Notes: a model not told the origin generated them from the letters alone. DNA of 64,000 nucleotides from Rikenella sp. (GCA_031551865.1 JAVBMY010000012.1:8753-72752); one strand, 5' to 3'; counted from the stretch's first letter, positions 8,009 to 36,029 are shown. A program made the numbers and translations.

Positions 8009-8911
8009 ATGACCGACGACTACCACATACCCGTATTGCTTGAGCGCAGCGTCGACGGGCTCGGCATGCAGCCCGGCGGCACTTACGTCGACGTCACTTT
8101 CGGCGGCGGCGGACACTCGCGCGAGATCTTGCGGCGGCTCGGCCGTAACGGACGGCTCATCTCGCTCGACCAGGACGCCGACGCGCTGGCCAACGCCCCG
8201 CAAGACAAGCGGCTGACCCTCGTGCACGGCAACTTCAGGTTCCTGCGCGGCTACGTGCGCGCCGCCGGTTGCGAACAGGCCGACGGCATTTTGGCCGACC
8301 TCGGCGTGTCGTCGCACCACTTCGACACCGCCGGACGCGGTTTCTCGTTCCGGTTCGAGGGGCCCCTCGACATGCGCATGAACCAGCGCGGAGGCCCCAC
8401 CGCCGCCGACATCGTGAACAACTACGAGCCCCAGGCACTGGCCACCCTCTTCGGCCGCTACGGCGAACTCGACAAGCCCTTCCGCATCGCCAACGCTATC
8501 GAGAAAGCCCGCCTCGAACACCCCATCCGCACCATCGAAGAACTGCTGGCCGCCGTGGAGCATTGCACGCCCCGGGGCGCCGAGTCGAAATTCCGCGCCA
8601 AGCTGTTCCAGGCCCTGCGCATCGAAGTGAACGGCGAAATGACCGCCCTCGAAATGATGCTTTCGCAAGCCATCCGGCTGCTTAAACCCGGCGGGCGGCT
8701 GTCGGTAATCACCTACCACTCGCTCGAAGACCGCATGGTCAAAAACTTCATCCGCAGCGGCAACGCCGCCGGGAACATAGAGAAAGACTTCTTCGGCAAC
8801 GCCAGTGCCCCGCTCAGAGCCATCGGCAAAGCCGGAGAACCCACCGCCGCCGAGATCGCCGACAACCCCCGGGCCCGGAGCGCCCGGCTGCGGGTGGCCG
8901 AGAAACTATAG
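8009..8911 (+). CDS. rsmH: 16S rRNA m4C1402 methyltransferase
   Basis: HIPVLL, DVTFGGGGHS, DLGVSS, PLDMRM, FQALRIEVN, HSLEDR, NPRARSARLR. Confidence 0.97.
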   Translation: MTDDYHIPVLLERSVDGLGMQPGGTYVDVTFGGGGHSREILRRLGRNGRLISLDQDADALANAPQDKRLTLVHGNFRFLRGYVRAAGCEQADGILADLGVSSHHFDTAGRGFSFRFEGPLDMRMNQRGGPTAADIVNNYEPQALATLFGRYGELDKPFRIANAIEKARLEHPIRTIEELLAAVEHCTPRGAESKFRAKLFQALRIEVNGEMTALEMMLSQAIRLLKPGGRLSVITYHSLEDRMVKNFIRSGNAAGNIEKDFFGNASAPLRAIGKAGEPTAAEIADNPRARSARLRVAEKL

Positions 8912-9047
8912 CAACAGCGGCGCCTGACTGACGAGCGATAAAGGCAGGCAGGCTGCCGAAAGAACCCGGGAGTGCGCAAACGCACCCGCCCGGCGGGCAG
9001 GCCGCTCCCAAACTCCCGGCTGCAGCACGACATTCCACATCCCGACC

Positions 9048-9680
9048 ATGCGCAACAAACACCGACATACCCCGTTCGAAACCGACGATTTCCTCGAAGA
9101 GACTGCTACAGGCCGTGAGTCCGGAGACGCCCGTTACGCGACCGGAAAAGAAGCCGGGCCATGGGCAGCGTCCGGCGACTACCCGGCCGAAGATGAGACC
9201 TACGCCCCCGAAGCCTACGACGACCCCTTCACCCTGCCCCGCCCCGGGGGTCCCCGGCGCCCGCGCCGCAAAATGAACATCGGGCAATTCTTCACCGGCA
9301 GCGTCATCGAGCGCAAAGGCTTCACCCGCCTGCTACCCGTGGTGGTATTTGTGGTTGTACTGATGCTGCTCTACATCGGCAACGGTTTCCGGGTGCAGGA
9401 AAAACACAGCCGCATCGACCAGCTCGACAACGAACTGAAGCGCCTCAAAACCCTCTCGGCCACCACCACCGCCGCCCGCATGAGCCTCACGCGGCAGGGG
9501 CGGATCGAAGAGCTCATCCGACAGCGCAACATCCCGCTCACTTTCGGCAAAAACCCCGTCCACATCATCGACCCACGGCCACCCGGGCTGGCCCCCTCGT
9601 CCGCTACCCCACAACCGCCCGTTTCAAACCCGGCCCCCGACGAATCCGGGACCAACACCGGCGCCGATATCCATGAATAG
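9048..9680 (+). CDS. ftsL: FtsL-like cell division protein (start uncertain, possibly 9273)
   Basis: Single TM followed by a coiled coil (LLYIGN..IDQLDNELKRLK); lies directly after rsmH. Confidence 0.7.
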   Translation: MRNKHRHTPFETDDFLEETATGRESGDARYATGKEAGPWAASGDYPAEDETYAPEAYDDPFTLPRPGGPRRPRRKMNIGQFFTGSVIERKGFTRLLPVVVFVVVLMLLYIGNGFRVQEKHSRIDQLDNELKRLKTLSATTTAARMSLTRQGRIEELIRQRNIPLTFGKNPVHIIDPRPPGLAPSSATPQPPVSNPAPDESGTNTGADIHE

Positions 9681-10650
9681 CCCGGCGACATACCCGTGGG
9701 GCGACGGGCGGCGCTACAACAGCTACTCGCGCCACTTCCGCGAACTGTTCGGGACCCGCCTGCAAAAAGTCGCCGTCGACGCCGGATTCACCTGTCCCAA
9801 CCGCGACGGCACCGTCGGCACCGGAGGCTGCACCTTCTGCAACAACGCCGCCTTCACCCCCTCGTACTGCGCGGCGGCGCTGAGCGTCGGAGAGCAGATC
9901 GAGACCGGGATCGCTTTCCACGCCCGCCGCTACCGCAAAGCCGGAGGCTATCTGGTCTACTTCCAGAGTTTTTCGAACACCCATAAACCTTTGGCCGAAT
10001 TGCGCGTCATATACGACGAAGCGGCCGCCCATCCCGACGTGCGCGGCATCGTGGTCGGCACCCGCCCCGACTGCGTCGACGCCGCGAAACTCGACTATTT
10101 CGCCACGCTCGCTGCCCGCAGCGGGCGCCACATTGTGCTGGAATACGGCATCGAATCGGTCTACGACGACACCCTGCGCGCCATTAACCGCGGACACGAC
10201 TTCGCCGCAGCGGAGCGGGCCGTTGCGATGACCGCCGAGCGCGGCCTCCCGTGCGGTGCCCACTTCATCGTGGGACTACCCGGTGAAACCGACGAGATGA
10301 TCCGCGCCTCGGCCACGGCGATCAACGCCTTACCGCTCGACAGCGTGAAATTCCACCAGTTGCAGATCCACCGCGGCACAGCCATGGCCGCCAGTTTCGC
10401 CGCCGATCCGTCGCGATACCGTTTTTTCGGGTTGTCAGCATACCTCGACCTGATGGCCGACCTGCTCGAACGGCTGCGGCCCACGCTGATCGTCGAGCGA
10501 TTCGCAGGCGAGGCCCCGCCGCGCTTCCTGGCCGAAGGAAGCGGCAACACCTGGCACGGCGTGCGCAACGAACGCTTCGTGCAACTGCTCGAACAGCGCC
10601 TCGAAGCGCGCGACGCCTGGCAGGGGCGGCTGGTGCCACAGGGCTACTGA
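9673..10650 (+). CDS. TIGR01212/YhcC-family radical SAM protein
   Basis: DAGFTCPNRDG..GGCTFC, YFQSFSNT, GTRPDC, VKFHQLQI. Confidence 0.92.
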   Translation: MNSPATYPWGDGRRYNSYSRHFRELFGTRLQKVAVDAGFTCPNRDGTVGTGGCTFCNNAAFTPSYCAAALSVGEQIETGIAFHARRYRKAGGYLVYFQSFSNTHKPLAELRVIYDEAAAHPDVRGIVVGTRPDCVDAAKLDYFATLAARSGRHIVLEYGIESVYDDTLRAINRGHDFAAAERAVAMTAERGLPCGAHFIVGLPGETDEMIRASATAINALPLDSVKFHQLQIHRGTAMAASFAADPSRYRFFGLSAYLDLMADLLERLRPTLIVERFAGEAPPRFLAEGSGNTWHGVRNERFVQLLEQRLEARDAWQGRLVPQGY

Positions 10651-10860
10651 GAAAAATCGGGGCTCCCCACCCCGCGAGCGGGCTTCGCCGCCGGGAAAAC
10701 CCGATGGACTAAAGCGGCCCGCGCCAGCCACCGAAGCGCGCCATCGCGCGTTTGGTGCGGATCGCGGAGTTTATCCTGAGCAACCTGCGCGGCAGGCGCC
10801 CGAAGGACTCGCTACACTGTGCCGACACAGAGAAAGGCAGGCCTGCTCCGCAGGCCGCCC
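10651..10860 (+). repeat. Mosaic repeat (expanded E module plus D module)
   Basis: cggagtttatcctgagc..ccgaagg and gagaaaggcaggcctgctccgcaggccgcc. Confidence 0.75.
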
Positions 10861-10938
10861 CGCCATACAAAGCCGCCACCCGGCAAACGCAGCCCTGCCC
10901 CCCCCAACAACCCACCGAAAATCCCTATCTTTGACCCG

Positions 10939-12942
10939 ATGAAAAAACTACTGGCGACCCTCCTGTTCGGCATCACCCTGGTGACCGGCCTTGCCGAAAG
11001 CGCCCGGGCGCAGCTCAACAAACCCTATTTCTTCTACCTCGGCCGCGAATACATCATCGCCGGCCGCTACCGCGAAGCCATCGATGCCCTGAACATGCTC
11101 CTGCGTACCGAAACCAAAGAGTACGAAGGCTACTTCCTGCGCGGCGTCGCCAAATACAACCTCGACGACCTGCTCGGCGCCGAGGCCGATTTCACGCGCG
11201 CCGTCGAAGAGAACCCCGTCTACACGCTCGCCTACCAATACCGCGCCATCACCCGCTCGCGGATGGGCAACTACGAAGAAGGGCTGCAAGACTACAACGC
11301 CGCCCTCGAACTGCGTCCCTCATTGTCGCCCGTCTATTTCAGCCGGGGGGTGACCTACTTCCTCAACCAGCAATTCGAAGCCGCCGCCGCCGACTTCACC
11401 CAATACCTCAAGAATGAGCCCACCGACGTCAACGCCCTCACCAACCGCGGCACCTGCTACCTCTACCTCAAAGACACCGTGCGGGCCTACGCCGACTTCA
11501 ACCGCGCCGTGGCCGTCAACCCCCGCAACGCCGAAGGCTACTTCCGCCGCGGCATCCTCGAAGTGTCGCAGCACAACTACGACCAGGGCATCGCCGACCT
11601 CGACCGCGCCGCCCAGCTCAACGACCGGTGGAGCCCCGTATTCTTCTACCGCGCCCGCGCCAAAGCCGCACAAAACAAAGTCATCGAAGCCCTCGCCGAC
11701 ATGAACCGCGCCATCGATTGCGACACCACCAACTCCGTGGCCTACTTCAACCGCGCCCTGCTGCTCGGCGAGATCGGCGACTACTCGGGCGCCATCGCCG
11801 ACTACGACCGCGTAGCCCTCTACAACCCCGGCAACGTGCTCGTCGTCTTCAACCGCGCTTCGGTCAAGGCCCGTATCGGCGACCTGCGCGGCGCCATCGC
11901 CGACTACACGCGCGCCATCGAACTCTACCCCGACTTCGCGAACGCCTACCTGCGCCGTGCCGACCTCAAAGCCCAACTGCGCGACACGCGCGGCGCCGAA
12001 ACCGACCGCCGCACCGCCAAAACCAAGATCGAGGCCTACCGCAACCAACTGGCCGACCGCTCGTTCTCGGAGTTCGCCGACACCAGCCGCCAGATGAACC
12101 AGATGCTCTCGTTCGACGCCGATTTCGGCGACAATCCCCTGCAAGCCATGACCAGCGACGCCCGCCGCGACGCCCGCCTGCTCCCCTTGTTCCGGGTAAC
12201 CATCGTGCCGCAGGACACCGTCGCCCTATATACCCAGCGCAACTATTACAACGAGCGCCAGGTCCGGCTCCTCGGGTCGCTTGCCGGGCCCGCAGGCTAC
12301 ACCTTCGCCCTCGGGACCCCGGCTTCCGGTTCGGTGCCCACCGACAGCATCGCCGCGTGGGACACCGCCAACGACAAGCCCGAGACCTGGGAAGCCTATT
12401 TCCGCAAAGGGCTGACCCAAAGCGCCCTGACCCAGTACACCTCGGCGATGAGCTACTACACCCGCTCGCTGCACGAAAAGGGCGACAACCCCTACACCTA
12501 CCTCAACCGCGCTGTGACGCAAGCCGAGATGATCGAATTCATCTCGTCGCTCGCCGGTAAATCGGCCCTGCAGACCATCGCCATCGGCGAAAACAATGAC
12601 CCCGCCGCCCGCCTGCTGCAAGGCGAATCGCGCCCCACCTACGACTACAGCGAAGCGATCCGCGACCTGCGCCGCGCCGCCGACCTGATGCCCGAACTGC
12701 CCTACGTATACTACAACCTGGCCAACCTCTACTGCCTGAGCGGCGACCTGCCGGGGGCCATCGACCTCTACACGCAGGCCATCGAGCGCTGGCCCGAATT
12801 CGCCGAAGCCTACTACAACCGGGGCCTGGTGCAGATCTTCCTGCGCGACGTGCAGAAAGGCTGCATGGACATCAGCAAAGCCGGCGAGCTCGGCCTGCAG
12901 GACGCCTACCGCACCCTGCGCGTCTACTGCATCAAGAAATAA
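10939..12942 (+). CDS. Secreted multi-TPR protein
   Basis: Signal peptide; many AY.NRG/A..DY..AI TPR units; TATCTTTG 5 nt before the ATG. Confidence 0.9.
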   Translation: MKKLLATLLFGITLVTGLAESARAQLNKPYFFYLGREYIIAGRYREAIDALNMLLRTETKEYEGYFLRGVAKYNLDDLLGAEADFTRAVEENPVYTLAYQYRAITRSRMGNYEEGLQDYNAALELRPSLSPVYFSRGVTYFLNQQFEAAAADFTQYLKNEPTDVNALTNRGTCYLYLKDTVRAYADFNRAVAVNPRNAEGYFRRGILEVSQHNYDQGIADLDRAAQLNDRWSPVFFYRARAKAAQNKVIEALADMNRAIDCDTTNSVAYFNRALLLGEIGDYSGAIADYDRVALYNPGNVLVVFNRASVKARIGDLRGAIADYTRAIELYPDFANAYLRRADLKAQLRDTRGAETDRRTAKTKIEAYRNQLADRSFSEFADTSRQMNQMLSFDADFGDNPLQAMTSDARRDARLLPLFRVTIVPQDTVALYTQRNYYNERQVRLLGSLAGPAGYTFALGTPASGSVPTDSIAAWDTANDKPETWEAYFRKGLTQSALTQYTSAMSYYTRSLHEKGDNPYTYLNRAVTQAEMIEFISSLAGKSALQTIAIGENNDPAARLLQGESRPTYDYSEAIRDLRRAADLMPELPYVYYNLANLYCLSGDLPGAIDLYTQAIERWPEFAEAYYNRGLVQIFLRDVQKGCMDISKAGELGLQDAYRTLRVYCIKK

Positions 12943-12947: not shown

Positions 12948-13180
12948 AGCCGTAAATCGTTCGTTAAACGATTTACGGCTTTGAATCCGCTCTGCGGCTT
13001 CCTCCTCCTTGCGCCTCGGCAATCTGCAAATAAATTTGCATTGCACTCGGCTACTGCGCCGGGTCTTAATGCTTGAGGTTCGAGGGAGCGGGATTTCGGG
13101 GTAGTGGCTTCAAAAAAAGCATCGACGCTACCCTCGCGCCACGCCGGGTCCTTTTTTTGAAGCCACTACCCCGAAATCCC
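12948..13180 (-). repeat. L-element copy 2 (30-bp perfect stem) plus T module plus S hairpin
   Basis: 13090-13119 pairs with 13151-13180; T module at 12981-13066; S hairpin at 12948-12980. Confidence 0.9.
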
Positions 13181-13262: not shown

Positions 13263-14651
13263 ATGGTAGAAAAAATCAAACGAAAACTGGCCCATTCGCC
13301 CTCGGCGCGCTGGATTGTGCTGGCCATGGTCTCGCTCACCATGTTCGCCGGCTACTTCCTGTGCGACGTGATGGCGCCCCTGAAAAACGCCATGACCGAA
13401 CTCTTCGGCTGGGACAACACCGACTTCGGCATCTTCAACAGCGGCTACGGCTGGCTGAACGTATTCCTGCTGATGCTCATCTTCGGCGGTATCCTGCTCG
13501 ACCGCTGGGGCCCGCGCCGCACCGGCGTGCTGGCCGTAGGAGTGATGGTGATCGGCATCGCCGTTAAATACTATGCCGTCGCCTTCATGGACGGCCACGA
13601 AATGAGCCACTTCTGGTTCTTCGGCGAGCGTGCCGTCCGAACCCAGGTGTTGCTGGCCGCCGCCGGCTTCGCCATCTTCGCCCTGGGCTACGAAGTCGTG
13701 GGGATCACCGCCACCAAGATCATCGTCCGCTGGTTCAAAGGCCGGGAAACCGCCCTCGCCCTGGGGCTGAACGTATCGCTGGCGCGCCTGGGCAGCGCCC
13801 TGGCCATGATCGCCCCCGTGCCGCTGTACAAGTGGTCGGGTTCGATCGGTTTTCCCATCCTGTTCGGTTTGGTATTACTGGCCATCGGTTTTGTGGGCTT
13901 TATGGTCTACGTGGTGATAGAACGCGACGCCACGGCCGCCGACACCAAGTCCGCCGAAGCCGAGCGCTTTCACCTGCGCGACGTATTCACGATCTTCGCG
14001 ATGCGCGGATTCTGGTACGTGGCCATGCTCTGCCTGCTCTTCTACTCGGCCATCTTCCCGTTCCTGAAATACGCCCCGGACATCATGATGCAGAAGTTCG
14101 GCATCAGCGAATCGTGGTCGGGATTCGTGCCGTCGTTGCTGCCCTTCGGAGCCATACTGCTTACGCCTCTGTTCGGCAACATCTACGACCGGCGCGGAAA
14201 AGGAGCCACGATGATGATCCTCGGGTCGCTGATGCTGGTCTTCATATATTCGATCTTTGCAATCCCGGCCGCCAGCCACTGGCTGATTGCCGCCGGGCTC
14301 GTCATCGCCATGGGAATCGCCTTCTCGCTGGTGCCCTCGGCCATGTGGCCCTCGGTGCCGAAGATGATCCCCGAGCGCAAACTCGGCACCGCCTACGCCC
14401 TGATCTTCTGGATCCAGAACGTTGGGCTTTCGTGCGTTCCGCTGCTGATCGGATGGATGCTCGACCGCTGGGGAACACTGCCCCCGGCCGTGGTCGACGG
14501 GAAAGCAGTCGCCCAATACGACTACACCCTGCCCATGCTCGCTTTTCTGTGCATCAGTGGCCTGGCCGTACTCTTCGGCCTGCTGCTCAAACGCGAAGAC
14601 CGCCTGCGCGGCTACGGTCTCGAAAAACCGAACATCACTACTGCAGCGTAA
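13263..14651 (+). CDS. MFS transporter
   Basis: About 12 TM segments; GGILLDRWGPRR motif A. Confidence 0.92.
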   Translation: MVEKIKRKLAHSPSARWIVLAMVSLTMFAGYFLCDVMAPLKNAMTELFGWDNTDFGIFNSGYGWLNVFLLMLIFGGILLDRWGPRRTGVLAVGVMVIGIAVKYYAVAFMDGHEMSHFWFFGERAVRTQVLLAAAGFAIFALGYEVVGITATKIIVRWFKGRETALALGLNVSLARLGSALAMIAPVPLYKWSGSIGFPILFGLVLLAIGFVGFMVYVVIERDATAADTKSAEAERFHLRDVFTIFAMRGFWYVAMLCLLFYSAIFPFLKYAPDIMMQKFGISESWSGFVPSLLPFGAILLTPLFGNIYDRRGKGATMMILGSLMLVFIYSIFAIPAASHWLIAAGLVIAMGIAFSLVPSAMWPSVPKMIPERKLGTAYALIFWIQNVGLSCVPLLIGWMLDRWGTLPPAVVDGKAVAQYDYTLPMLAFLCISGLAVLFGLLLKREDRLRGYGLEKPNITTAA

Positions 14652-14671
14652 AACGAAAAGTTTCTCTGAAC

Positions 14672-14822
14672 AAAGAGCGGCCAGCCCACCGGGTTGGCCG
14701 CTGTCATAAGCATGGCACCCTTCACCGAGAAAGAAGCGCCCGGCCTTGCTAAGCACACCCTCCGGTGCGCCGCTCGGCCACAAAGTCCGGAGAAAAGCAG
14801 GCCTGCCTTACGGCAAGCCGCA
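14672..14822 (+). repeat. Mosaic repeat (A, partial B, D)
   Basis: aaagagcggccagccc..gggttggccgc; gagaaagaagcgcc; ggagaaaagcaggcctgcc. Confidence 0.8.
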
Positions 14823-14890
14823 CAATAGACGCGAAAAGCCTTCCGAACACCCTTGCCAGCGTGGGGCAAAATGCGTAGCTTTGCAGGCAT

Positions 14891-16474
14891 ATGGGGAAAC
14901 GGCTGCACCTAAATATTCTCAGGGGTGACAAGGCGCTATGGATCATAGTCAGCCTGTTGTTGCTCGTGTCGCTGCTGATCGCCTATTCCGCCACCACCTC
15001 GGTCGCCTACCGTGTCTACGGCGGCGACTACACCTTTTACCTCTTCCGGCAAATCCGGTTCATCATGATCGGCTTTTTCGTCATCATCCTGTTCCACAGC
15101 CTCAACTACAAAGGATACGCGAAAATCCCCAAAAGCCTGTTCTGGGTGAGCCTTGCGCTCGTGGCCCTGGTCTACTTCATCGGGCTGAGCAAAAACGAGG
15201 CCTCGCGTTGGATGGGCATCCCGGGGCTGATCGCATCGTTCCAGCCTTCGGAAATCCTCAAAGTCGCTTTAATTATCCTGCTCGCCCAGCAACTCGGTGC
15301 CCGGCAGCACTACATCGGGCGCGCCCCGCTGCTTCCCCCGCTCACCTCGGGCGGCTGGAAGGCCAATCCCCAGCGCAGCCGCAACATCTACCACAACATC
15401 AGCAAGCCCCTGCTGCTCCCGCTGCTGCTGAGCTGCGCCCTGGTCATGCCCTCGAACCTCTCGACCGCCCTGATCATCTTCGGGGCCTGCACTGTGATGA
15501 TGTCCGCGGGTGGCGTCCGGGCGCGCCAGCTGACCAAATTCGTTTTCCTCACCCTTCTGGCCGGACTGCTCATGCTGAGCGCCATGAAACTGGCCGGCGT
15601 GGGACGGGCGCAAACCCAGTTCAACCGCATCGTGCAATTTGTGACCCCGGCGGCCGGCGAGAACGGCGGCGAAGAGTCGAACGCCAACAAATTCCAGGTC
15701 GAACAAGCCAACATCGCCATCGCCTCGGGCGGCATCTTCGGCAAAGGCCCCGGCAACAGTACCCAGCGCTCGCAACTCCCCCACGCCTACGACGACTTCG
15801 TGTACGCCTTCATCGTCGAAGAATACGGCCTCGTGGGCGGCATTATCATCTTCGTACTCTACCTGTGGCTCTTCTACCGGTCGGGACTGATCGCCAGCCA
15901 GACCCGGCACCCCGCCAAAGCGCTGATCGTGATCGGGCTGAGCACCATGATCACCATGCAGGCCTTCGTGAACATGTGCGTGTCGGTGGGGCTGATGCCC
16001 GTCACCGGGCAGCCGCTGCCCCTGATCAGCATGGGAGGCAGTTCGGTAATGATGACCTGTGTGGCCATCGGACTGATCCTGGGCGTGAGCCGCGAGAACG
16101 AAAAAGAACGCCTGGCCGAAGAGAAGGCTTTGGCTGCCGAAGCCGCCGAAGAAGAAGCATCGCCCGCTGCTGCAGGGGTTGCCGCTTTGCCGCGCGCCGC
16201 GGACGATAACAAAGTTCTTGCAAGCTCTAAAACAGAGGCTACCGGACCTCCTGACCACAGCCATTCGGCACCCGTCAGTAAAGCGAATAAAAAGACCTCG
16301 CTCTTTGCCCGACAAGAAGCCCCTTCTTCGCCAGTTCCGGTTGTTGCAGGCGAAGACGACGATGAACTTCGGCTCGTGGATCGCAGCGCGCCCGGCACCA
16401 CTGCCACCGGTACCGGACACCGCGAAGTGATCAACCTCGAAGACGACGACTGGGATGATGAAGCGCCGTTCTAA
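14891..16474 (+). CDS. ftsW: SEDS peptidoglycan polymerase FtsW, with long acidic C-tail
   Basis: SFQPSEILK, GKGPGNS, DFVYAFIVEEYG, PVTGQPLPLISMGGSS. Confidence 0.93.
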   Translation: MGKRLHLNILRGDKALWIIVSLLLLVSLLIAYSATTSVAYRVYGGDYTFYLFRQIRFIMIGFFVIILFHSLNYKGYAKIPKSLFWVSLALVALVYFIGLSKNEASRWMGIPGLIASFQPSEILKVALIILLAQQLGARQHYIGRAPLLPPLTSGGWKANPQRSRNIYHNISKPLLLPLLLSCALVMPSNLSTALIIFGACTVMMSAGGVRARQLTKFVFLTLLAGLLMLSAMKLAGVGRAQTQFNRIVQFVTPAAGENGGEESNANKFQVEQANIAIASGGIFGKGPGNSTQRSQLPHAYDDFVYAFIVEEYGLVGGIIIFVLYLWLFYRSGLIASQTRHPAKALIVIGLSTMITMQAFVNMCVSVGLMPVTGQPLPLISMGGSSVMMTCVAIGLILGVSRENEKERLAEEKALAAEAAEEEASPAAAGVAALPRAADDNKVLASSKTEATGPPDHSHSAPVSKANKKTSLFARQEAPSSPVPVVAGEDDDELRLVDRSAPGTTATGTGHREVINLEDDDWDDEAPF

Positions 16475-16507
16475 GTGCGCACCCGCACTGGGGATTATTC
16501 TTTCGTA

Positions 16508-16794
16508 GAGAAAAGAGCGGCCAGCCCGGCCCCCCGGTCGGCTCGCAAAGAAAAAAACGCCCGCCCGCACCCGGCGAGGTACGAGGTCGCGCCAACAATT
16601 ACTTACCCGTTGGCAGGCCAGTTAACTTTTACGAATTGTGGTTGACAGGATGTCCCTGATGCCTGCGGTTGGCCGGTTGCCGACGCAGGAGGAATTCGCG
16701 CCCGCCCCGGCCCCCTTTAGGGCGGGCGCACTCCTTTACCGGAATCGTATGCACAATTCCGTTTCAGTCGGTACGGCCCCCTTACGGGGCCGCC
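16508..16794 (+). repeat. Mosaic repeat (partial A, B, C)
   Basis: gagaaaagagcggccagccc; gcgcccgccc..gggcgggcgc; tcagtcggtacggccccc..ggggccgcc. Confidence 0.8.
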
Positions 16795-16844
16795 AAAAGC
16801 ACCCTCCGACCAACCCCTGCCTGCCCCGCAACCACTCTCCATAC

Positions 16845-18236
16845 ATGACCTACAAAAACATATACTTCATCGGCATCGGCGGCATTGGCATGAGCGCCCT
16901 GGCCCGCTACTTTCGCCACGAAGGCTGCGCCGTGAGCGGCTACGACCGCACCCCGAGCCCCCTGACCGCCGAACTCGAAGCCGAAGGCATCGCCGTACAC
17001 TACGACGACAACACCGGGCTCATACCCGATGACATACGGCAAAGCCCCCCCGCGGAAACCCTCGTCGTCTACACCCCCGCCGTGCCCGCCGACCACAGCG
17101 AGTTGCAATGGTTCCGGGCTAACGGCTACGAAGTGCTGAAACGCTCGCGCACCCTCGGCATCATCGGCGCCCATAAACGCGTAATGGCCGTGGCCGGTAC
17201 CCACGGCAAGACCTCGACCACCACCATGGCCGCCTGGTTCAATACCCGCGGCGCAGGCCAGGGGAGCGCCTTCCTGGGCGGCATCTCGAAGAACTTCGGC
17301 AGCAACCTCGTGCTCGGCCCCGGCGAACGGCTGGCCGTTGAAGCCGACGAATTCGACCGCTCGTTCCTGCAACTCGAACCGCAGGCCGCCGTCATCACCT
17401 CGACCGACGCCGACCACCTCGACATCTACGGCAACGCCGAAGCCTTTGCCGAAGCCTTCGAAGCCTTTGCCCGACAAATCAAACCCGGCGGCACCCTGAT
17501 CACCAAAGAAGGGATCGGCCTCTCCGCCGGCCGCATCGACATCGGGCGCTACACCTACTCGCTCGACGACAAAAACAGCGACTTCCACGCCGAAAACCTC
17601 ACCGTCGACACCACCGGGCACTACACCTTCGACCTCGTGCTGCCCGACCACCGCATCGACGACTGCCGGCTCGGCATCCCCGGCGCCGTGAACGTCGAGA
17701 ACTGCGTGGCCGCCGCCGCCCTCTGCTGGACCGAAGGCTTCACGTCGGACGACAATCTTAAAGAAGCCATCGCCACTTTCAGCGGCGTACGCCGCCGGTT
17801 CGACTTCCACGTCAACACCCCGCAGGTGGTCTACATGGACGACTACGCCCACCACCCGACCGAGCTGGCCGCCATGCTGACCTCGGTGCGCGGCATGTTC
17901 CCCGGCCGGAGCGTAACCCTCGTGTTCCAGCCCCACCTCTATACCCGCACGCGCGATTTCGCCCCCGCGTTCACCGAAGCGCTGAGCCTGGCCGACCACC
18001 TGCTGCTGCTGCCCATCTACCCTGCCCGCGAAGAGCCCATCGAAGGCGTCAGCTCCGAAATGCTGCTGCGCGGAATCCACGTGCCGGGAAGCAGCGAGAT
18101 CGTGCAGAAAGAGGAGCTGATCGCGCGGCTGTCCGCACTCGACTTCGACATCCTGGTCACCGCCGGTGCGGGCGACATCGACCGCTTCTGCGAGCCGATC
18201 GCAGCGTTGGTTCGGCAAAGGGTAGCGGAAAAATAA
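16845..18236 (+). CDS. murC: UDP-N-acetylmuramate--L-alanine ligase
   Basis: GIGGIGMSALA, AGTHGKTST, EADEFDRSF, DDYAHHPTE, FQPHLYTRTRD. Confidence 0.97.
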   Translation: MTYKNIYFIGIGGIGMSALARYFRHEGCAVSGYDRTPSPLTAELEAEGIAVHYDDNTGLIPDDIRQSPPAETLVVYTPAVPADHSELQWFRANGYEVLKRSRTLGIIGAHKRVMAVAGTHGKTSTTTMAAWFNTRGAGQGSAFLGGISKNFGSNLVLGPGERLAVEADEFDRSFLQLEPQAAVITSTDADHLDIYGNAEAFAEAFEAFARQIKPGGTLITKEGIGLSAGRIDIGRYTYSLDDKNSDFHAENLTVDTTGHYTFDLVLPDHRIDDCRLGIPGAVNVENCVAAAALCWTEGFTSDDNLKEAIATFSGVRRRFDFHVNTPQVVYMDDYAHHPTELAAMLTSVRGMFPGRSVTLVFQPHLYTRTRDFAPAFTEALSLADHLLLLPIYPAREEPIEGVSSEMLLRGIHVPGSSEIVQKEELIARLSALDFDILVTAGAGDIDRFCEPIAALVRQRVAEK

Positions 18237-18309: not shown

Positions 18310-18572
18310 AAAAAAGCGGCGGCCCCCAGCCTCCTCCCGACGGCCCACCGACGACCATAGCGAGGGTGACCGAATTTATTCAGATCGCCGAGCAAGTAGG
18401 AGAAAGAGGCCACAACGTGGACTCAAAGGCCGTGGGGCTGGGCACTCGGCTGATGCACGAGAAAAGGCGGCCACCCCACCCCCGTGAGCGACCTTTGTCC
18501 GCTGGGGTGGCCGCGGCATAAACACTACAACCTTCGCGGAGAAAAGCAGGCCTCGCTGCGCGAGGCCTGCCA
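18310..18572 (+). repeat. Mosaic repeat (hairpin with nested T module, then A and D)
   Basis: T-like 18350-18426 (reverse orientation) inside cccagcc..acggcc/ggccgt..ggctggg; A at 18467-18545; D at 18539-18572. Confidence 0.8.
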
Positions 18573-18621
18573 CAAACACGGCACAGAAATTGTGCAGAAC
18601 CTGACAAACGCAAACCATCCG

Positions 18622-19786: not shown

Positions 19787-20035
19787 AGAGAAAAAACGTC
19801 CCGCACCAGCCGCCGAAACAGAGAAACTCGCGCCCACTCCGCAAGATGCAAAGCGTCTGGGTCTGTCGGTTACCATAAGCACTACACCCTTCGCGGAGAA
19901 AGAAGCGCCCACCCGCACCTGGCGAGTTCGCGAAGCGAACTGCGGGTGGGCCCCGGCCTCGCTAAGCATGGCTCTGCGCGTGCAGCCCGGCCGCCAAGCC
20001 CGGAGAAAGGCAGGCCTGCCTCACGGCAGGCCGCC
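19787..20035 (+). repeat. Mosaic repeat (A tail, B, D)
   Basis: cataagcactacacccttcgcggagaaagaagcgcccacccgca..tgcgggtgggc; ggagaaaggcaggcctgcc. Confidence 0.8.
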
Positions 20036-24453: not shown

Positions 24454-24559
24454 ATGCCATCCCGAGCGAAGCCGAGGGAACTTTCCAATAACAGGTGTAG
24501 ACCACAGGTACGGGTCTGCCTCTTATTGGAAAGTTCCCTCGGCTTCGCTCGGGATGACG
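24454..24559. repeat. REP-like inverted dimer (GTCA/CGTC-type), 34-bp perfect arms
   Basis: 24458-24491 is the exact reverse complement of 24523-24556. Confidence 0.9.
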
Positions 24560-24618
24560 TATTTGAAGTCGGGAAGTTTCTCCCCATTCCGTCCATTTTT
24601 ATTACCTTTGGGGTCGCC

Positions 24619-25203: not shown

Positions 25204-25499
25204 TTTCCCCGCTGCCGGAATCCCTCCACCGAACCCAACACCTTCACTACTCTCCGACCGACCCAAGGGGTTCTGGCCCCGCCGCTGAAATAATTTCCCG
25301 GACAACCGGAGTGCTGCGCTCTCAAACCAGGCAACGAACAATTTTCGGGACAATAACAGTCCGCTCTTCGGACACCTCATCAATACGTTCCGGCAAGCCT
25401 CTACGCTTGCCGGAACGTGTTTTATTCTATGCAATGGACAAGGCCCCGGAAAATTCCCTACCTTTGGAAAATCCAAAACCATTCACACGAAACACTCCG

Positions 25500-26789: not shown

Positions 26790-26936
26790 TGCTTACCTTC
26801 GGGCTTTCAAAAAAAGCGGCCTTTTCATACCAAAAAAGAGTCGCCCGAAAAAGCCCAATACAAACCCTTGCGCCTTCGGAGAACCGCTCGGAACGAATGA
26901 GAAACTCCCCGAGGCCGATCAAGCTAACCCAACGCC

Positions 26937-28370
<1,434 letters not shown>

Positions 28371-28420: not shown

Positions 28421-28500
28421 GCTGACGCTGGCAGTGAGTGCAATCAAGTTTGCTTGCATTGCCGAGCGCCGAGGAGGAAAAGGCCACGCAGTGGACTTAA
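28421..28500 (-). repeat. T module copy
   Basis: Reverse complement ttaagtccactgcgtggccttttcctcctcggcgctcggcaatgcaagc..attgcactc matches 12981, 30146 and 49397. Confidence 0.85.
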
Positions 28501-28768
28501 CCAAGAAAACTTTTCTGAATGCTCCGCATTCCTCTTTTCAGCATTGCGGCGAAGAGGTGCGTAGCGCCTCGTGAATCTGATTACGAAAACCCATCTTGAA
28601 AGCAAGCTTTCGAAGTGATCTTTCGTAATCAAATTCATAATTCAATGCCTTCGGCATTTTTGCCACAATGAGAAATAGGCAGGAAACGTAATTTCCAAAA
28701 AAGTTCTTTTAATTCTTTTCTTTCAAGAAAAGAATGCCCGCCCGGCGAGGGCGTCAAATTATAAGCGC

Positions 28769-30109
28769 ATGGCAGACAGGAAATTCATTGTGGTGATCGG
28801 AGGCGGCGAGAGCGGCTACGGTTCGGCGGTCTTGGCGCAGGAACAGGGCTTTGAGGTGTTGGTGAGCGATAGCGGGGCCATTAAGGAGCCTTACCGTTCG
28901 CAGTTGGCCGAACGCGGGATAGCCTTCGAGGAAGGTGGGCACAGCGAAGAGAAGATACTCGGCGCCGCCGAGATCATCAAAAGTCCCGGCGTGCCCGATA
29001 GCGCACCCTTGATCGTGAGAGCAAGGGAGCGAGGGATTCCCATCATCTCCGAGATCGAATTCGCCGGTCGCTATACCGGCGGCGCAAAGACCATCTGCAT
29101 CACCGGCAGCAACGGTAAAACCACCACCACCTCGCTGATATATGAGATCCTGCGCGGGGCGGGTTTCGACGCCGAGTGCTGCGGCAACATCGGGCGGAGC
29201 TTCGCCCAGGTTGTCGCCGAGCGCGGCGAGCGGCAACCCCGGTGGTACGTGCTTGAGATCAGCAGTTTCCAGCTCGACGGCATGTACGATTTCCGCGCCG
29301 ACATCGCCCTGCTGCTCAACATCACCCCCGACCATCTCGACCGCTACGACCACCGCATGGCGCTGTACTCCTCCAGCAAATTCCGTGTGGCGCGTAACCA
29401 GCGCCCTGGCGACACGTTCGTCTACTGCGCCGACGACCCCGAGATAGGGAGCGGTTTAGCTGACGCCCCCGGTGCAGCCGTACGGGTTCCCTTTTCGGTG
29501 ACGCGTCCCGTGGCCGGCGCCTGGTTCGACGGCACCCTGCTCCACTTCGAAGACTTTTCCTTTCCAGCCCCGGCGCTGAAAATCAAAGGGCTGCATAACA
29601 TCCTCAACGCACTGGCCGCCATCGTGGCCACCCTGCGGGCCGGCGCCGCCCCCGAAGCCGTGGCCAGCGGACTCGAAACCTTCGCAGGCGTCGAGCACCG
29701 CCTCGAACACGTGCGCTATGTAGGCAACGTCGAATACATCAACGACTCGAAAGCCACCAACGTCGCCTCGGTGCGCTACGCCCTCCAATCCATGACCCGC
29801 CCCACCGTCTGGATCGCCGGGGGCACCGACAAAGGCAACGACTACAAAGAGATCGAGTCCCTCGTGCGCGAACACGTCAAAGCCCTCGTCTGCCTGGGCG
29901 CCGACAACGCCAAACTCGTCAAAGCCTTCACCGGCGTGGTGCCCGAAATCTACGACACTCATTCGTTGGAAGAGGCCATTGCCGCCTGCCGCCGCGCTGC
30001 CGCGAGCGGCGACATCGTACTGCTCTCGCCCGCCTGCGCAAGCTTCGACCTGTTCCGGAACTACGAAGATCGCGGCCGGCAGTTCAAGGCCGCCGTGAAG
30101 GCGCTGTAA
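28769..30109 (+). CDS. murD: UDP-MurNAc-L-Ala--D-Glu ligase
   Basis: GGGESG, ITGSNGKTTT, LEISSFQL, PDHLDRY, NDSKATN, SPACASFD. Confidence 0.97.
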   Translation: MADRKFIVVIGGGESGYGSAVLAQEQGFEVLVSDSGAIKEPYRSQLAERGIAFEEGGHSEEKILGAAEIIKSPGVPDSAPLIVRARERGIPIISEIEFAGRYTGGAKTICITGSNGKTTTTSLIYEILRGAGFDAECCGNIGRSFAQVVAERGERQPRWYVLEISSFQLDGMYDFRADIALLLNITPDHLDRYDHRMALYSSSKFRVARNQRPGDTFVYCADDPEIGSGLADAPGAAVRVPFSVTRPVAGAWFDGTLLHFEDFSFPAPALKIKGLHNILNALAAIVATLRAGAAPEAVASGLETFAGVEHRLEHVRYVGNVEYINDSKATNVASVRYALQSMTRPTVWIAGGTDKGNDYKEIESLVREHVKALVCLGADNAKLVKAFTGVVPEIYDTHSLEEAIAACRRAAASGDIVLLSPACASFDLFRNYEDRGRQFKAAVKAL

Positions 30110-30111
30110 GC

Positions 30112-30480
30112 AAAAGGCGGCCACCCCACCCCCGCGAGCGGCCTTTGAGTCCTTCGGTCTCCTGCTCCTTGTGCCTCAGCAATTCAAGCAAGCTTGATTG
30201 CACTCGGCTACTGCGTCGCTCGTGCGCTGGGGTGGCCGCGGTATAAGCATTGCACCCTTCGCGGAGAAATTCGCGCCCACCCCCCTCGGGGGGGGCGCGC
30301 TCCCTCGCCGACAAATGCCTGACGGCATTCGCGGCTCAGTCGATACGGCCCCTACGGGGCCGCCGAGCCGCGCACTTCGCGACTAAAGTCGCTCCGTGAC
30401 GCGGCCGCTACGGCCTCGCGGAGTTTACCCGGCCGAAGCTGCGAGGAACGAAGCAGGCAGCCGAATGGGCGAGGCCTCCA
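30112..30480 (+). repeat. Most complete mosaic repeat: A[T nested]-B-C-D[Z nested]
   Basis: A 30116-30268 with T at about 30146-30218; C 30333-30365 identical to 60419-60451; Z 30421-30468. Confidence 0.9.
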
Positions 30481-30553: not shown

Positions 30554-31804
30554 ATGTTCTACCACTTAGCAGACTACCTCCGTTCCAATTTCGACACCCC
30601 CGGCGCCGGGATGTTCGCCTACATCTCGTTCCGCTCGGCGGGCGCCATCGTACTAGCCCTTGTCATAGGGCTGATCTTCGGCAAAAGGATCATCAAGTTC
30701 CTGCAACGCAAACAGATCGGCGAAGACATCCGCGACCTCGGCCTCGACGGCCAGATGCAAAAGAAAGGTACCCCCACCATGGGCGGCCTGATCATTCTGG
30801 GCGCCATCCTGATCCCCGTGCTGCTGCTCGCCGACCTGACCAATACCTACGTCTGGCTTATGCTTGCCGCCACCGTGTGGCTCGGCTTCATCGGCTTCAT
30901 CGATGACTACATCAAGGTTTTCAAAAAACGTAAAGAAGGCCTCAAGGGCCGTGTCAAGATCCTCGGGCAAGTGGTGCTCGGCGTGCTTGTGGGTACCACC
31001 GTCTGGCTCAGCGGCGACATCACCGTGCGCGAACCCGTGCCCCGCAACACCCACGGCGTCGAGCGCGTCGAAGCCGAAGACCTCGTGAACCAGCGCAAAG
31101 TGGTCTACCTTTCGGCCCCCGAGAAGTCGACCGCGACTACCGTCCCCTTCTTCAAGAACAGCGAACTCGACTACCGCGACCTGGTGCCCGCCGAAGGCAA
31201 GCTGGGCGACACGCTGGGCTGGCTGCTCTACATACTGGTGGCGATCATCGTCATCACAGCCGTGTCGAACGGCACCAACCTGACCGACGGCCTCGACGGG
31301 CTGGCGGCCGGAACGTCGGCCATCATCATCCTGGTGCTCGGCTTTTTGGCCTACCTGTCGGGCAACGTGATCTACTCCGACTACCTGAGCATCATGAACA
31401 TTCCGGGCAGCGGCGAACTGATGATCTTCGCGGCGGCCTGCCTCGGGGCCCTGCTGGGGTTCCTGTGGTACAACGGCTATCCGGCGCAAGTGTTTATGGG
31501 CGACACGGGGAGCCTCGCCATCGGCGGTATCATCGCCACGTTCGCTTTGCTGATCCGCAAGGAGCTGCTGTTGCCGATCCTGTGCGGTATCTTCCTCGTG
31601 GAAAGCTGTTCGGTGATGATCCAGGTGTCGTGGTTCAAATACACCAAAAAGAAGTACGGCGAAGGCCGCCGCGTGTTCCTGATGACGCCCCTGCACCACC
31701 ACTACCAGAAGAAAAACTACCACGAGAATAAGATCGTGTTGCGCTTCTGGATCGTCCAGCTCATGCTCGCCGCCATCACCCTGATGACCCTCAAGATCCG
31801 GTAG
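30554..31804 (+). CDS. mraY: Phospho-MurNAc-pentapeptide transferase
   Basis: [37 protein letters not shown]. Confidence 0.97.
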
Positions 31805-31851
31805 CCACGCGCCCCCTTTCTCTACGAACGGCCCTTATTAACTCCGTCATT

Positions 31852-31956
31852 CCCCGTCATTGCGGGGAGCATAAAACGCGACGAAGCAATCTTCCTATTC
31901 AATGAACGGGAAGATTGCTTCGTCGGCTTTTACAAAGCCTTCTCGCAATGACGGGG
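31852..31956. repeat. CGTC-type REP inverted dimer between convergent mraY and murE
   Basis: ccccgtcattgcg..gcgacgaagcaatcttcc / ggaagattgcttcgtcg..cgcaatgacgggg. Confidence 0.85.
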
Positions 31957-32057
31957 TCAGAGACCCCTTTATTAACCAAAACCTCAGGAACTCCTAGGCG
32001 GTTCAAGGGCAAAAACACCAGAGTATGCAGACATACCGCGACGAGCGCGACACCGTA

Positions 32058-33587: not shown

Positions 33588-33776
33588 GATATTGAGTTTA
33601 TTAGGGATCACGCTATGCGGCACATTTCGGCCCAAAGCACAGCCCGCGAGGCCGCCTGAGTCCGCTTCGCGGCTTCCTGTTCCGCGACCTGCCCGGGGCA
33701 CCGACCCCTGCTGTCGTTTCGGGCGTCCCTTCGCACCCGGGATACCCGGTGCGCGGGTTGCAGGCAAGTCGTGGTC

Positions 33777-36029
33777 TTACAAAGCTTCCTGGGGTAATCC
33801 CGTATTAATTTTCTGATTTACGGACAGTTGGACCGTGATACGGTCGCCGGGGTCGTAGGGTGTACCGGGCTCAAGCGACTGAGAGACCACCGTGCCCATG
33901 CCTTCGAACACGGGGCGCAGACCGACCTCTTCCGATAAGCGTAAAGCCTGCGGCAGGGTCATGCCGCGCAGGTCGGGGACCCCACCCGCCCCGGCCACCA
34001 TCGGGGACAGCGTCACCACGCGGCCGCTGTCGAGCGCCACCTGGACGTCGGCCATAGCGCCGACGGCTGCGGGAACTCCGCCCACCCCGAGCATCCGCAT
34101 CAGTTCGGAAAGCTGAGACGACGGCCCGGGCAGCGCCCGCAGGGCTGGAGCATAGGCCTGCCGGCGGGTAGCGACCGGTTGCTGGAAGTTGTTGTTCAGC
34201 AGGTAGATATAATCGGCCATCTTCCGGAAAATCGGTCCAGAAAGGTCGGCGCCGTAATACGGTTTCTTCGACCCTTCGTAGTAGTGGGTCTGGAGCACCA
34301 CGATCAGGCTGTAGCGCGGCTTGTCGGCAGGCATGTAGCCCGCCAGCGACGCCAGGTAATGGACGCTCTTGTCGGGTTGCTCGTAGCGGCCGCCGATGGC
34401 CACACGGGCCGTGCCCGTTTTGGCGGCTATCGTATACGGGGCGCCCTGAAACAGGCGCATCGCCGTGCCGTGGGTCACCACGCCTTCGAGGGCGCGGCGT
34501 ACGTAGGCCAGCGCGGTCGACGAACAGACGGCCGAGTCGAGGATTTCGGTCTCGTAACGCTCGATGACCCTGTCTTTGTTACGGAGTTCGCGCACGATCA
34601 TCGGTTTCACCTTGCGGCCGCCGTTGGCGACGGCGTTGTAGAGGGCCAGCGTCTGGATGGGGGAGACTTCGACGGCATAGCCGCGGGTCATCGTGTTGGT
34701 GGTCGATCCCGTCCAGCTCCGGGGATTGTCGGGGTTGGCGTGCGTGGGCGGTTTTTCACCGATGAGTTGCAGGCCGAGCGGTTCGAGGATGCTCGTCCGT
34801 TCGAGCGCTTTCAGGAAGCGGTGCCTTTGGGCGTAGGGATAGACTTCGAGGGCTGCTTTGGCCATACCGATGTTCGACGACACTTCGAACACCTCTTCGA
34901 GCGGGATTATCCCGTAGCCCCCGTGGTGCGAGTCCGAGACTTCGACGCCGTCCGTAGTGGTGGCTTTGCCGTCTTCGGTGTTGATCATTTTGGCGGGCGA
35001 CAGGCGGGCGTCGTCGTAGAAGGCCATCAGCACGGGGAGCTTGAAGGTCGAGCCGGGCTCCATGCGCTGGCCGATGGCATAGTTGTAAATCTCGGGCAGT
35101 ATCTCTCCGGTCGCCGAGCGGGTGACGTTCGATATGGCTTTTATGTCGCCGGTGGCCACTTCCATCACGATGGCGCAGCCCCATTCGGCGCGGGCTTCGG
35201 ACACCCATTGCTGGAGCGCTCCCTGCACCATGTCCTGGAGTTCGACGTTGATGGTGGTCATCAGGTCGTAGCCGTGCACGGGGTCGATGTTGTTCTCGTC
35301 GAACACCGGCAGGTTTTTGCGCCCGGCGCCCCTTTGGCGGACGACGAGACCGGGACTCCCCCTGAGGATCTCTTCGAAACTGAGTTCGATCCCGGTGCGC
35401 CCTTTCGACTCGCCGTCGGTTTCTCCGAGCGAACGCCGGGCCAGCGACCCGTAGGGGTGTTCGCGCTCGTAGCGTTCGGTGGGTGTAAGGCCGCTTTTGT
35501 AGCGCCCGAGGCGGAACAGGGGGAATTGCTTGACTTTCTGCAGGTCGATGTAGTTGACCCGGATGGGGGTCACCAGGTGGGAGCGGGCCTGAGCGGCCCG
35601 GGCGGCGATGAGTTCTTGTGTGTACTGTGCGGCGCTTTTGTCGCCGAAGAATGCGGCGAGTGCCTGTCCTAGCTCCGCGAAAGCCTGTGCGGTGAAGATG
35701 GTGTCGGCTTTGGGGTCGATCTCGACGCGGCGGCTGGTGGGGCCGCACTCGGGGCAGAGGTCCATCCGCAGTTCGTAGTAGGGGATCGAGGTGGCCATCA
35801 GGCGGCCGTCGTCGGAATAGACGTTGCCGCGCTGGGCGGTCAGCACGTCGTTGAACTGGGTCTCTTCGGAGTTCTGGAGCTGCTGGCTCAGCGGGCCGTA
35901 TTGCAGCCACACGATCCGGCACAGCACACCGATCCCGATCAGGAGGAAGACCAGGTAGAGCGCTCTGATCTTGTTCACCCGGGCTTTGGCGATCTGGTCG
36001 GGAGTGGGGGTCTGCGGTTTTTTCGGCAC
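33777..36029 (-). CDS. ftsI: Class B PBP (PBP3) with C-terminal PASTA domain
   Basis: EPGSTFK (SxxK), SSN, KTGT; PASTA-like tail; upstream of murE. Confidence 0.9.
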   Translation of the reverse strand: MPKKPQTPTPDQIAKARVNKIRALYLVFLLIGIGVLCRIVWLQYGPLSQQLQNSEETQFNDVLTAQRGNVYSDDGRLMATSIPYYELRMDLCPECGPTSRRVEIDPKADTIFTAQAFAELGQALAAFFGDKSAAQYTQELIAARAAQARSHLVTPIRVNYIDLQKVKQFPLFRLGRYKSGLTPTERYEREHPYGSLARRSLGETDGESKGRTGIELSFEEILRGSPGLVVRQRGAGRKNLPVFDENNIDPVHGYDLMTTINVELQDMVQGALQQWVSEARAEWGCAIVMEVATGDIKAISNVTRSATGEILPEIYNYAIGQRMEPGSTFKLPVLMAFYDDARLSPAKMINTEDGKATTTDGVEVSDSHHGGYGIIPLEEVFEVSSNIGMAKAALEVYPYAQRHRFLKALERTSILEPLGLQLIGEKPPTHANPDNPRSWTGSTTNTMTRGYAVEVSPIQTLALYNAVANGGRKVKPMIVRELRNKDRVIERYETEILDSAVCSSTALAYVRRALEGVVTHGTAMRLFQGAPYTIAAKTGTARVAIGGRYEQPDKSVHYLASLAGYMPADKPRYSLIVVLQTHYYEGSKKPYYGADLSGPIFRKMADYIYLLNNNFQQPVATRRQAYAPALRALPGPSSQLSELMRMLGVGGVPAAVGAMADVQVALDSGRVVTLSPMVAGAGGVPDLRGMTLPQALRLSEEVGLRPVFEGMGTVVSQSLEPGTPYDPGDRITVQLSVNQKINTGLPQEAL

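Follow-up and report, generated by a model that had tools for sequence, protein, structure and literature searches.

Rearranged order of the division and cell wall genes in a Rikenella sp. genome and the intergenic repeats that occupy its junctions

The 64,000-nt stretch of Rikenella sp. DNA analyzed here as a whole (the window; GCA_031551865.1, JAVBMY010000012.1:8753-72752) carries the division and cell wall (dcw) gene cluster in a strongly rearranged form, with palindromic repeats in many of its gaps. It lies on contig C13 of a draft assembly (G000; 1.94 Mb in 18 contigs, 82% complete), and the genes were identified by scanning the window proteins with NCBIfam and Pfam profiles. All 12 dcw genes were found in the assembly, one copy each, and no second, canonical copy of the cluster is present elsewhere in it. 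In the window they form ~9 pieces on two strands with six foreign genes interposed: rsmH, ftsL, ftsW, murC, murG, ftsQ, ftsA, ftsZ, murD and mraY are read from the plus strand, and murE, ftsI, pyrF and prfA follow on the minus strand. The murC/murG and murD/mraY orders are reversed in comparison with the canonical cluster. The family scans agree with the order and strands of the dcw genes given in the original prediction, which was made from sequence alone; the list was incomplete in that it omitted the six interposed genes, namely mnmL, a TPR protein gene, an MFS transporter gene, rnd, a TlpA-like gene and aspA.

The first dcw fragment starts with the 16S rRNA m4C1402 methyltransferase gene rsmH (8009-8911; TIGR00006, 293.7 bits) and continues with a Bacteroidota-type ftsL (9048-9680; PF19579 FtsL_2, E = 1e-12). 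The latter overlaps by 8 nt with the MnmL/YtqA radical SAM gene mnmL (9673-10650), a breakpoint without any repeat. Behind mnmL lie the genes for the TPR protein (open reading frame (ORF) 10819-12942) and the MFS transporter (13263-14651); these three genes, all on the plus strand and assigned by family scans, accompany dcw genes in the congeners too. The next fragment comprises ftsW (14891-16474; TIGR02614, 254.9 bits), murC (ORF 16638-18236, or 16845-18236 from the start of homology at residue 70; TIGR01082, 348 bits) and murG (ORF 18484-19776, with homology from ~residue 57; TIGR01133, 275.4 bits), followed by ftsQ (20119-20928), ftsA (20941-22527) and ftsZ (ORF 22791-24446, with homology from residue 41), the last three recognized by family scans. 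The ftsQ-ftsA-ftsZ trio is a conserved sub-block, yet its ftsA-ftsZ spacer is 380 nt long and filled with repeats, as compared with 63-100 nt in the congeners.

Three further non-dcw genes occupy positions 24601-28370 of the plus strand, again by family scans: rnd, encoding an RNase D-like 3'-5' exonuclease, comes first and is followed by the gene for a TlpA/ResA-like thioredoxin (25311-26789) and by aspA (26937-28370), with no repeats at the rnd-tlpA and tlpA-aspA junctions. Then murD (28769-30109; TIGR01087, 392 bits) precedes mraY (30554-31804; TIGR00445, 332 bits), the product of which has its nearest named relatives in "Rikenellaceae bacterium" (68% identity) and "Tidjanibacter sp." (66%). 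On the minus strand, family scans identify murE (32058 to ~33587, with homology from ~residue 61 of the ORF) and ftsI (33777-36029), which remain a conserved pair, and the housekeeping genes pyrF and prfA (36082-38232), which are present beside dcw genes in every congener examined. The ftsI-pyrF spacer measures 52 nt and is free of repeats, as had been claimed. Several of these ORFs are over-extended at their 5' ends, and the true spacers are therefore longer than they appear.

The whole window gave no Rfam match, so its spacers are without known RNA families. TAnnTTTG boxes are more frequent than expected in the window (28 versus 11.75), and those at 10926, 14876, 24603 and 36954 precede the likely true starts of the TPR gene, ftsW, rnd and pyrF by 10-35 nt; the promoter-like box of ftsW spans 14876-14883. 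No such box was found before murC, murG, ftsQ, ftsZ, murD, mraY or rsmH, and these seven genes may therefore be transcribed by read-through from upstream. The GC-skew switch near 32 kb tracks the strand of the genes, as third codon positions are C-rich on the coding strand.

The dcw cluster is regarded as among the most stable gene clusters; in Cyanobacteria it is fully dispersed, and Chloroflexi and Planctomycetes have it as sub-clusters (PMC8871954). The order found in G000 is very unusual for Bacteroidota. Among 80 Bacteroidota loci surveyed around mraY with 10-kb flanks, where colinearity was judged as far as each locus reached, a single one has a change of strand or order (an inverted ftsA-ftsQ pair), and the rest are colinear with the canonical order. 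The dcw clusters of two sister genera from the same family (G016 and G018) are fully canonical, with short spacers.

Within the genus itself the orders were determined by tblastn on stretches fetched from the congeners. The cluster is fragmented in all 13 other species, and the four congeners with long contigs carry four different permutations of the same genes. In G010, prfA, pyrF and aspA on the plus strand are followed by murD, mraY, murE, ftsI, ftsL and rsmH on the minus strand, then by rnd, mnmL and the TPR gene on the plus strand and, ~17 kb further on, by ftsZ to ftsW on the minus strand, so that both dcw halves are intact. G005 begins with murD on the plus strand, continues with murE, ftsI, ftsL and rsmH on the minus strand, and has all remaining genes on the plus strand in the order rnd, mnmL, TPR, mraY, prfA, pyrF, aspA, MFS, ftsW, murG, murC, ftsQ, ftsA and ftsZ. 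In G002, murD (plus) and the TPR gene (minus) are separated by ~30 kb from a plus-strand series of rsmH, rnd, mnmL, ftsL, ftsI, murE, mraY, prfA, pyrF, aspA and MFS that leads into ftsW to ftsZ. In G006, rsmH, rnd, mnmL and TPR on the plus strand precede murE, murC, murG, ftsW, MFS, aspA, pyrF, prfA, mraY and murD, all on the minus strand. The direct contact of murE with murC in G006 (C3:12654-15582) is a private arrangement on a repeat-free 31-kb contig, with ftsQ, ftsA and ftsZ off the contig.

Behind these permutations, ~19 genes (dcw and housekeeping) keep to one neighborhood of 40-60 kb across the genus. Inside it, murD has at least six different neighbors across the 13 species. Other adjacencies recur. 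The order murG-murC, with the two genes 2-27 nt apart or overlapping, is kept in 11 of the 11 informative congeners, which makes the murC/murG swap, correctly noted in the original prediction, private to G000. Adjacency of MFS and ftsW is common to G000, G002, G005 and G006, and that of murD followed by mraY to G000, G006 and G011; in G006 the murD-mraY spacer is 80 nt long and repeat-free. If the latter adjacency was inherited rather than acquired convergently, the repeat-laden 444-nt spacer of G000 was filled later.

A tree of MurC and MurD resolves three deep lineages, represented by G000, by G010 and by a crown group of 10 species. Identity of the two proteins is 66-69% between the lineages and 79-95% within the crown group, and gene order varies even within the crown. 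The comparison of dcw order across relatives, suggested together with the original prediction, separates canonical sister genera from congeners each of which is fragmented. Counted in reversals, G000 is at least 6 steps away from the canonical order, and the lower bound for its congeners is 2-3. Between G000 and its congeners the lower bound is 8-11 over 19 genes. A positional match exists with G010, where aspA, murD, mraY, murE and ftsI occupy the same positions as in G000 and only the orientation of murD and mraY differs. The geometry of these two genes thus fits the in-place flips of single genes that had been proposed; the role of repeats as the cause of the flips did not find support, as described below.

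The scrambled order could in principle result from mis-joins at repeats, by which an assembler would have permuted the segments of a canonical cluster. The assembly is a draft, incomplete and divided into contigs, with repeats in most of the junctions in question, and another assembly breaks on either side of mraY. However, the longest exact repeat shared by any dcw junction with the rest of the genome is 34 nt, and between two dcw junctions it is 23 nt; such repeats are too short to mislead modern assemblers. Two of the odd junctions, both repeat-free, recur with identical spacing in separate Logan contigs of the public run SRR23967709, in which the RsmH, PyrF and MraY proteins are identical to those of the window. 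The first contains an esterase gene, a 338-nt spacer, rsmH, a 136-nt spacer, ftsL, and mnmL with the 8-nt overlap, and the second contains pyrF, the 52-nt spacer, ftsI, a 189-nt spacer and murE. An identical MraY protein is encoded on just one other contig, which measures 1618 nt and stops within the repeat-filled flanking spacers, and exact-protein look-ups for AspA, MnmL and MurD returned no record. Odd features of the order also recur in congeners, including the MFS-ftsW, murD-mraY and pyrF-prfA adjacencies and the position of aspA next to murD, and a canonical order would have no need of spacers of 160-440 nt, which in relatives measure 2-100 nt. The gene order of G000 is probably real, and an assembly artefact is very improbable.

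Rearrangement is not a peculiarity of the dcw region in this genus. Control regions located via anchor genes were compared between G005 and G002, two genomes with ~84% identity, and broken adjacencies make up 9/32 (28%) in the dcw region versus 13/44 (30%) in four control regions. Conserved adjacencies between G000 and G005 amount to 47% in the dcw region and to 0-50% in six control stretches. A rearrangement hot spot at dcw was rejected on account of these equal rates. What distinguishes the region is its cohesion, since ~35 genes around dcw stay on one stretch of ~47 kb, whereas the control neighborhoods scatter over several contigs. In bacteria, inversions that are short or limited to one gene occur in excess, and small neighborhoods can persist without conserved order (PMC7542183); where short inversions are over-represented, the outcome is a neighborhood kept without its order. 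This bias was documented by Lefebvre et al. 2003, Seoighe et al. 2000 and Darling et al. 2008, as summarized in PMC7542183. The murD and mraY genes, flipped in place relative to G010, resemble such events, with the difference that here they reach a normally very stable cluster.

The repeats in the gaps belong to several families by self-comparison: F3, F4, F2 and a mosaic of GC-hairpin modules (A-type and related). F3 is the most abundant family in G000, with ~100-140 BLAST matches genome-wide and none in relatives; its copy at 24454-24558 lies just 3' of the ftsZ stop codon and has 38-nt arms that are 97% complementary (dG -82.5). The F4 palindrome at 31849-31958, between the convergent genes mraY and murE, has a dG of -68.4 and ~32 matches genome-wide. 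The mosaic is made of short GC-hairpin modules preceded by purine-rich runs, and its copies are collinear between junctions. The palindromes named at breakpoints in the original prediction all sit directly 3' of a stop codon and are of uneven strength: 24454 (F3) and 31852 (F4) rank as very strong, 14672 forms a clean GC stem of 12 bp, strength is moderate at 16508, 28421 and 30112, and the palindromes at 18310 and 19787 are weak.

F2 is a MITE-like (miniature inverted-repeat transposable element) sequence of ~75 nt with copies at 12981-13049, 28424-28514, 30150-30220 and 49397-49479. The copy 5' of murD (28424-28514, minus strand) forms an inverted pair with that at 30150-30220, which is 78% complementary over 50 nt, the best 27-nt stretch reaching 92.6%. 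The right-hand copy (~30148-30220) interrupts the loop of an A-type hairpin (30110-30290, plus strand) that is intact apart from this insert and has uninterrupted copies at 7721-7810 and 18462-18550. This arrangement indicates that the elements spread by insertion, and interruption of a sequence that is intact elsewhere is the behavior of a MITE; an alignment of the four F2 copies gave no clear ends, terminal inverted repeats or target-site duplications. A further inverted pair consists of two 51-nt sequences (30418-30468 and 49489-49539; 92% complementary) 19 kb apart, which enclose the segment from mraY to the methylmalonyl-CoA decarboxylase genes. Of the potential substrates for inversion that involve the dcw region, this pair is the best.

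Repeats account for 6% of G000 bases, and the median spacer is 165 nt. A dispersed repeat of at least 20 nt is present in 53% of spacers longer than 200 nt genome-wide and in 21/28 on the contig of the window. The distribution over contigs is uneven: C1, C3 and C15 contain 0.9-2% repeat bases at a GC content of ~56-58%, with median spacers of 100-120 nt, and C8, C12-C14 and C17 contain 4-6% at 59-61% GC, with median spacers of ~200-220 nt. The families are confined to this species among the genomes sampled, as 16 repeat queries gave hundreds of matches in G000 and one in ~785 kb of six relatives, including four scrambled congeners. Repeat load is ~5.4% of sampled bases in G000 versus 2.2% in G005, where no more than 12 nt is common to any two dcw junction spacers and the 80-kb dcw stretch has two repeated segments, neither of them at a dcw breakpoint.

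In several respects these elements are reminiscent of known ones. Repetitive extragenic palindromes (REP) and the bacterial interspersed mosaic elements (BIME) built from them are associated with RAYT (REP-associated tyrosine) transposases, and MITEs include the Correia elements of Neisseria. Like these, the G000 repeats are short, imperfect, intergenic palindromes, multicopy, arranged in modular arrays, oriented with transcription, nested and species-specific. In contrast to REP/BIME-RAYT systems, the 82%-complete assembly yielded no cognate Y1 transposase, and RAYT-driven REP elements were rejected on the lack of a PF01797 match. The repeat families of G000, none of which matches Rfam, appear to be undescribed.

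The central proposal of the original prediction was that the repeats serve as recombination sites shuffling essential genes like cassettes. Repeats are indeed found at 7/11 of the junctions unique to G000, ftsL-mnmL, rnd-tlpA, tlpA-aspA and ftsI-pyrF being the four without them. They are also found at 4-5 of the 8 junctions shared with relatives, namely MFS-ftsW, ftsA-ftsZ, murD-mraY, pyrF-prfA and, arguably, mnmL-TPR, so that the claim of palindromes at breakpoints holds in part and does not set the breakpoints apart. In all, 55 G000 junctions could be classified against the sampled relatives. Repeats are present at 13/33 conserved and 8/22 broken junctions (Fisher p = 1.0), with the same result for long spacers alone, and the enrichment at breakpoints that had been put forward for testing is absent. 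There is no association between repeats and breakpoints. As half of the long spacers hold repeats genome-wide, finding them at breakpoints is no evidence that they caused the breaks.

A programmed system, in which a dedicated recombinase would shuffle or invert the dcw genes at their palindromes, draws on a superficial similarity to a cassette array, with a palindromic element after each gene, and on the positional order relative to G010 that fits single-gene flips. The same resemblance extends to the shufflons of R64 (Rci), the invertible promoters of Bacteroidales and the integrons (IntI/attC), which also have palindromes between genes or inverted brackets. Such systems differ from G000 in their adjacent recombinase or integron integrase and common core site, and in G000 the units are essential housekeeping genes whose differences are fixed between species. 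Profile scans detected no recombinase in the window or on contig C13, and across the 82%-complete assembly they gave no match for Y1/RAYT or rve transposases or for serine recombinases. Its four tyrosine recombinases, one of which is XerD, are all on other contigs, and a single DDE_Tnp_1 gene is on C14. The best match to the integron integrase family TIGR02249 scores 162 bits against a cut-off of 265 and is the XerD protein itself (335 bits against a cut-off of 329.6). Membership in integrons or shufflons was rejected in the absence of an integrase or invertase. This set of mobile-element enzymes (XerD, three divergent tyrosine recombinases and one DDE transposase) is very small for a repeat-rich genome.

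The sites argue in the same direction as the enzymes. The junction elements come from several unrelated families with no common core, and GTTRRRY/RYYYAAC cores were not seen by eye in the F3 and F4 palindromes. Exact matches from one dcw junction to another extend to no more than 23 nt in direct and 14 nt in inverted orientation; genome-wide, single genes are bracketed by inverted repeats in 3 cases and by direct ones in 4, with no excess of the former. Copies of these repeats also lie beside phoU, ffh, argS, PFOR, PPDK and further genes, four breakpoints are free of repeats, and congeners that lack these families are equally scrambled. The proposal of an undescribed cassette-shuffling system thus largely fails on its own terms, since repeats are no more frequent at breakpoints than at conserved junctions, and we give hardly any credence to a programmed mechanism. 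The locus is a case of a known kind of event, dcw fragmentation, notable for Bacteroidota, and not of an undescribed recombination system.

Another role considered for the modules is that of a shared cis-regulatory leader that would co-regulate the dispersed dcw genes, a regulon having replaced the operon. Multi-module arrays are located upstream of rsmH, ftsW, murC, murG, ftsQ, ftsZ and mraY. Seven arrays have at least three modules, and four of these are in the dcw region. Most dcw genes lack a perfect TAnnTTTG box on their upstream side, and the modules are polar with transcription. Their orientation tracks the flanking genes, 21/29 intergenic copies being in co-oriented contexts. However, the motifs were defined from the dcw region, which biases the array count, and the modules adjoin unrelated housekeeping genes at 84 loci (beside pstB/phoU, pgm, tolQ, argS, ffh, PPDK, PFOR, mutS2, coaX, rmlA and some M23 peptidase genes), with equal frequency at 3' and 5' ends. 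The modules between plus-strand genes (14660-14830, 16500-16580, 19820-20070, 22680-22810 and 28737-28753) have their T-run on the minus strand, and they score as hairpin-plus-T-run intrinsic terminators only for antisense transcription. A regulatory leader of this kind is highly unlikely.

The observations are probably best explained by ordinary small-scale rearrangement in a genus freed from the constraint on dcw order, with the repeats as a separate filler of gaps and no device. In this scenario, the constraint that keeps dcw colinear in nearly all other Bacteroidota would have been lost in one genus of a Rikenellaceae-like family, and short inversions, often of one or two genes, together with transposition-like moves would then have broken the cluster differently in each species. 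The pieces still share a single neighborhood of 40-60 kb with prfA, pyrF, aspA, MFS, rnd, mnmL and TPR. G000 forms a deep and long branch and is the most rearranged member of the genus. The species-specific GC-rich hairpin modules and MITE-like palindromes would have settled in conserved and rearranged gaps alike. We infer that rearrangement came first and the repeats later, and relaxed selection on dcw order is likewise presumed.

Several points weigh against this explanation. No cause for the relaxation was found, and every congener is so distant from G000 in MurC and MurD that dating of the G000-specific events is hampered. The genome with the highest repeat load, G000, is also the one whose dcw cluster is most rearranged (at least 6 reversals versus 2-3), a correlation in a single genome on a long branch. 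Repeats are carried by 9/10 long spacers of the dcw region, somewhat above the genome-wide proportion. All three junctions of the murC/murG swap have hairpin modules in direct orientation, the pattern expected if a segment had been excised and re-inserted between direct repeats, and the inverted F2 pair, the sole inverted bracket among dcw units, encloses murD. Past recombination between repeats that have since diverged could have taken place.

Some of these points are the basis of a passive variant, in which the repeats, without any dedicated system, would have raised the local rate of rearrangement via homologous recombination, microhomology or template switching at palindromes. Part of what is specific to G000, for instance the murC/murG swap and the flipped murD and mraY, would then be due to them. 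The modules shared by the three swap junctions are collinear, with 87-100% identity over 16-45 nt, and palindromes offer homology in both orientations. On the other hand, passive assistance would have to operate without enrichment at breakpoints and with exact identity of at most 23 nt, and the rate of rearrangement per adjacency is similar in repeat-poor congeners, the murD-mraY adjacency of G006 being repeat-free. Because the modules are polar with genes, a series of co-oriented junctions should hold direct copies even if no recombination took place. The A-type hairpin around the right-hand F2 copy beside murD is intact, which argues against an inversion through the pair, as this would have split the hairpin. 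Passive assistance by repeats is accordingly an improbable account, and small-scale rearrangement independent of the repeats is preferred.

It is also conceivable, although doubtful, that the hairpins are more than filler in a genus that escaped the constraint on dcw order with a full mre/mrd/rodA set and is still re-permuting the cluster between species 80-86% identical. The transcription-polar hairpin mosaics, which occupy almost all dcw junctions of G000, might then insulate or process a long transcript in place of operon coupling, or might speed gene-scale rearrangement.

Candidate triggers for the rearrangement of the cluster were considered in turn. Tandem duplication and loss behind the murC/murG swap was rejected by blastx of every spacer against the dcw proteins of the window and six relatives, which revealed no pseudogene remnants. 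Loss of mismatch repair as a source of the genus-wide fluidity was rejected as well, MutS domain I being present in G000 and in 13/13 congeners. The window has no mraZ, the usual first gene and regulator of dcw, upstream of rsmH; MraZ (PF02381) was not found in G000, in 18 genomes of the family or in one neighboring family, and it was found in 11/12 other families of the order. As it was not found in the two canonical sister genera either, its loss is not sufficient, and it was rejected as the trigger.

The fragmentation resembles known dcw dispersal in that the same genes are split by delocalization, with ftsQ-ftsA-ftsZ, ftsI-murE and rsmH-ftsL kept together in G000. It differs in its occurrence within Bacteroidota, in one genus, in species-specific forms and with the pieces still within 40-60 kb. 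Conservation of dcw order has been linked to rod shape, with rearranged clusters in non-rod species, and the 'genomic channeling' hypothesis of Tamames and Mingorance ties the order to co-translational assembly of the Mur and divisome complexes (PMC10214165). The window contains a canonical rod-shape set, mreB-mreC-mreD-mrdA-rodA (53494-60275, minus strand), and G000, by joining this full set with a scrambled dcw cluster, may be a counter-example to the link between shape and order. A Gram-negative genus that has the rod-shape machinery and a species-specific order of murC, murD, murE, murG and mraY provides a natural test of genomic channeling: either dcw order is unimportant in this genus, or something compensates for its loss.

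Two minor features of the window lie outside the dcw cluster. The conserved rod-shape block has repeats inside it, as a 94% inverted repeat of 49 nt (55268-55316 and 58731-58779) brackets mrdA to mreC. A collagen triple-helix-repeat protein of 351 aa is encoded on the minus strand at 41019-42074, between a manC-like gene and the oxaloacetate/methylmalonyl-CoA decarboxylase genes.

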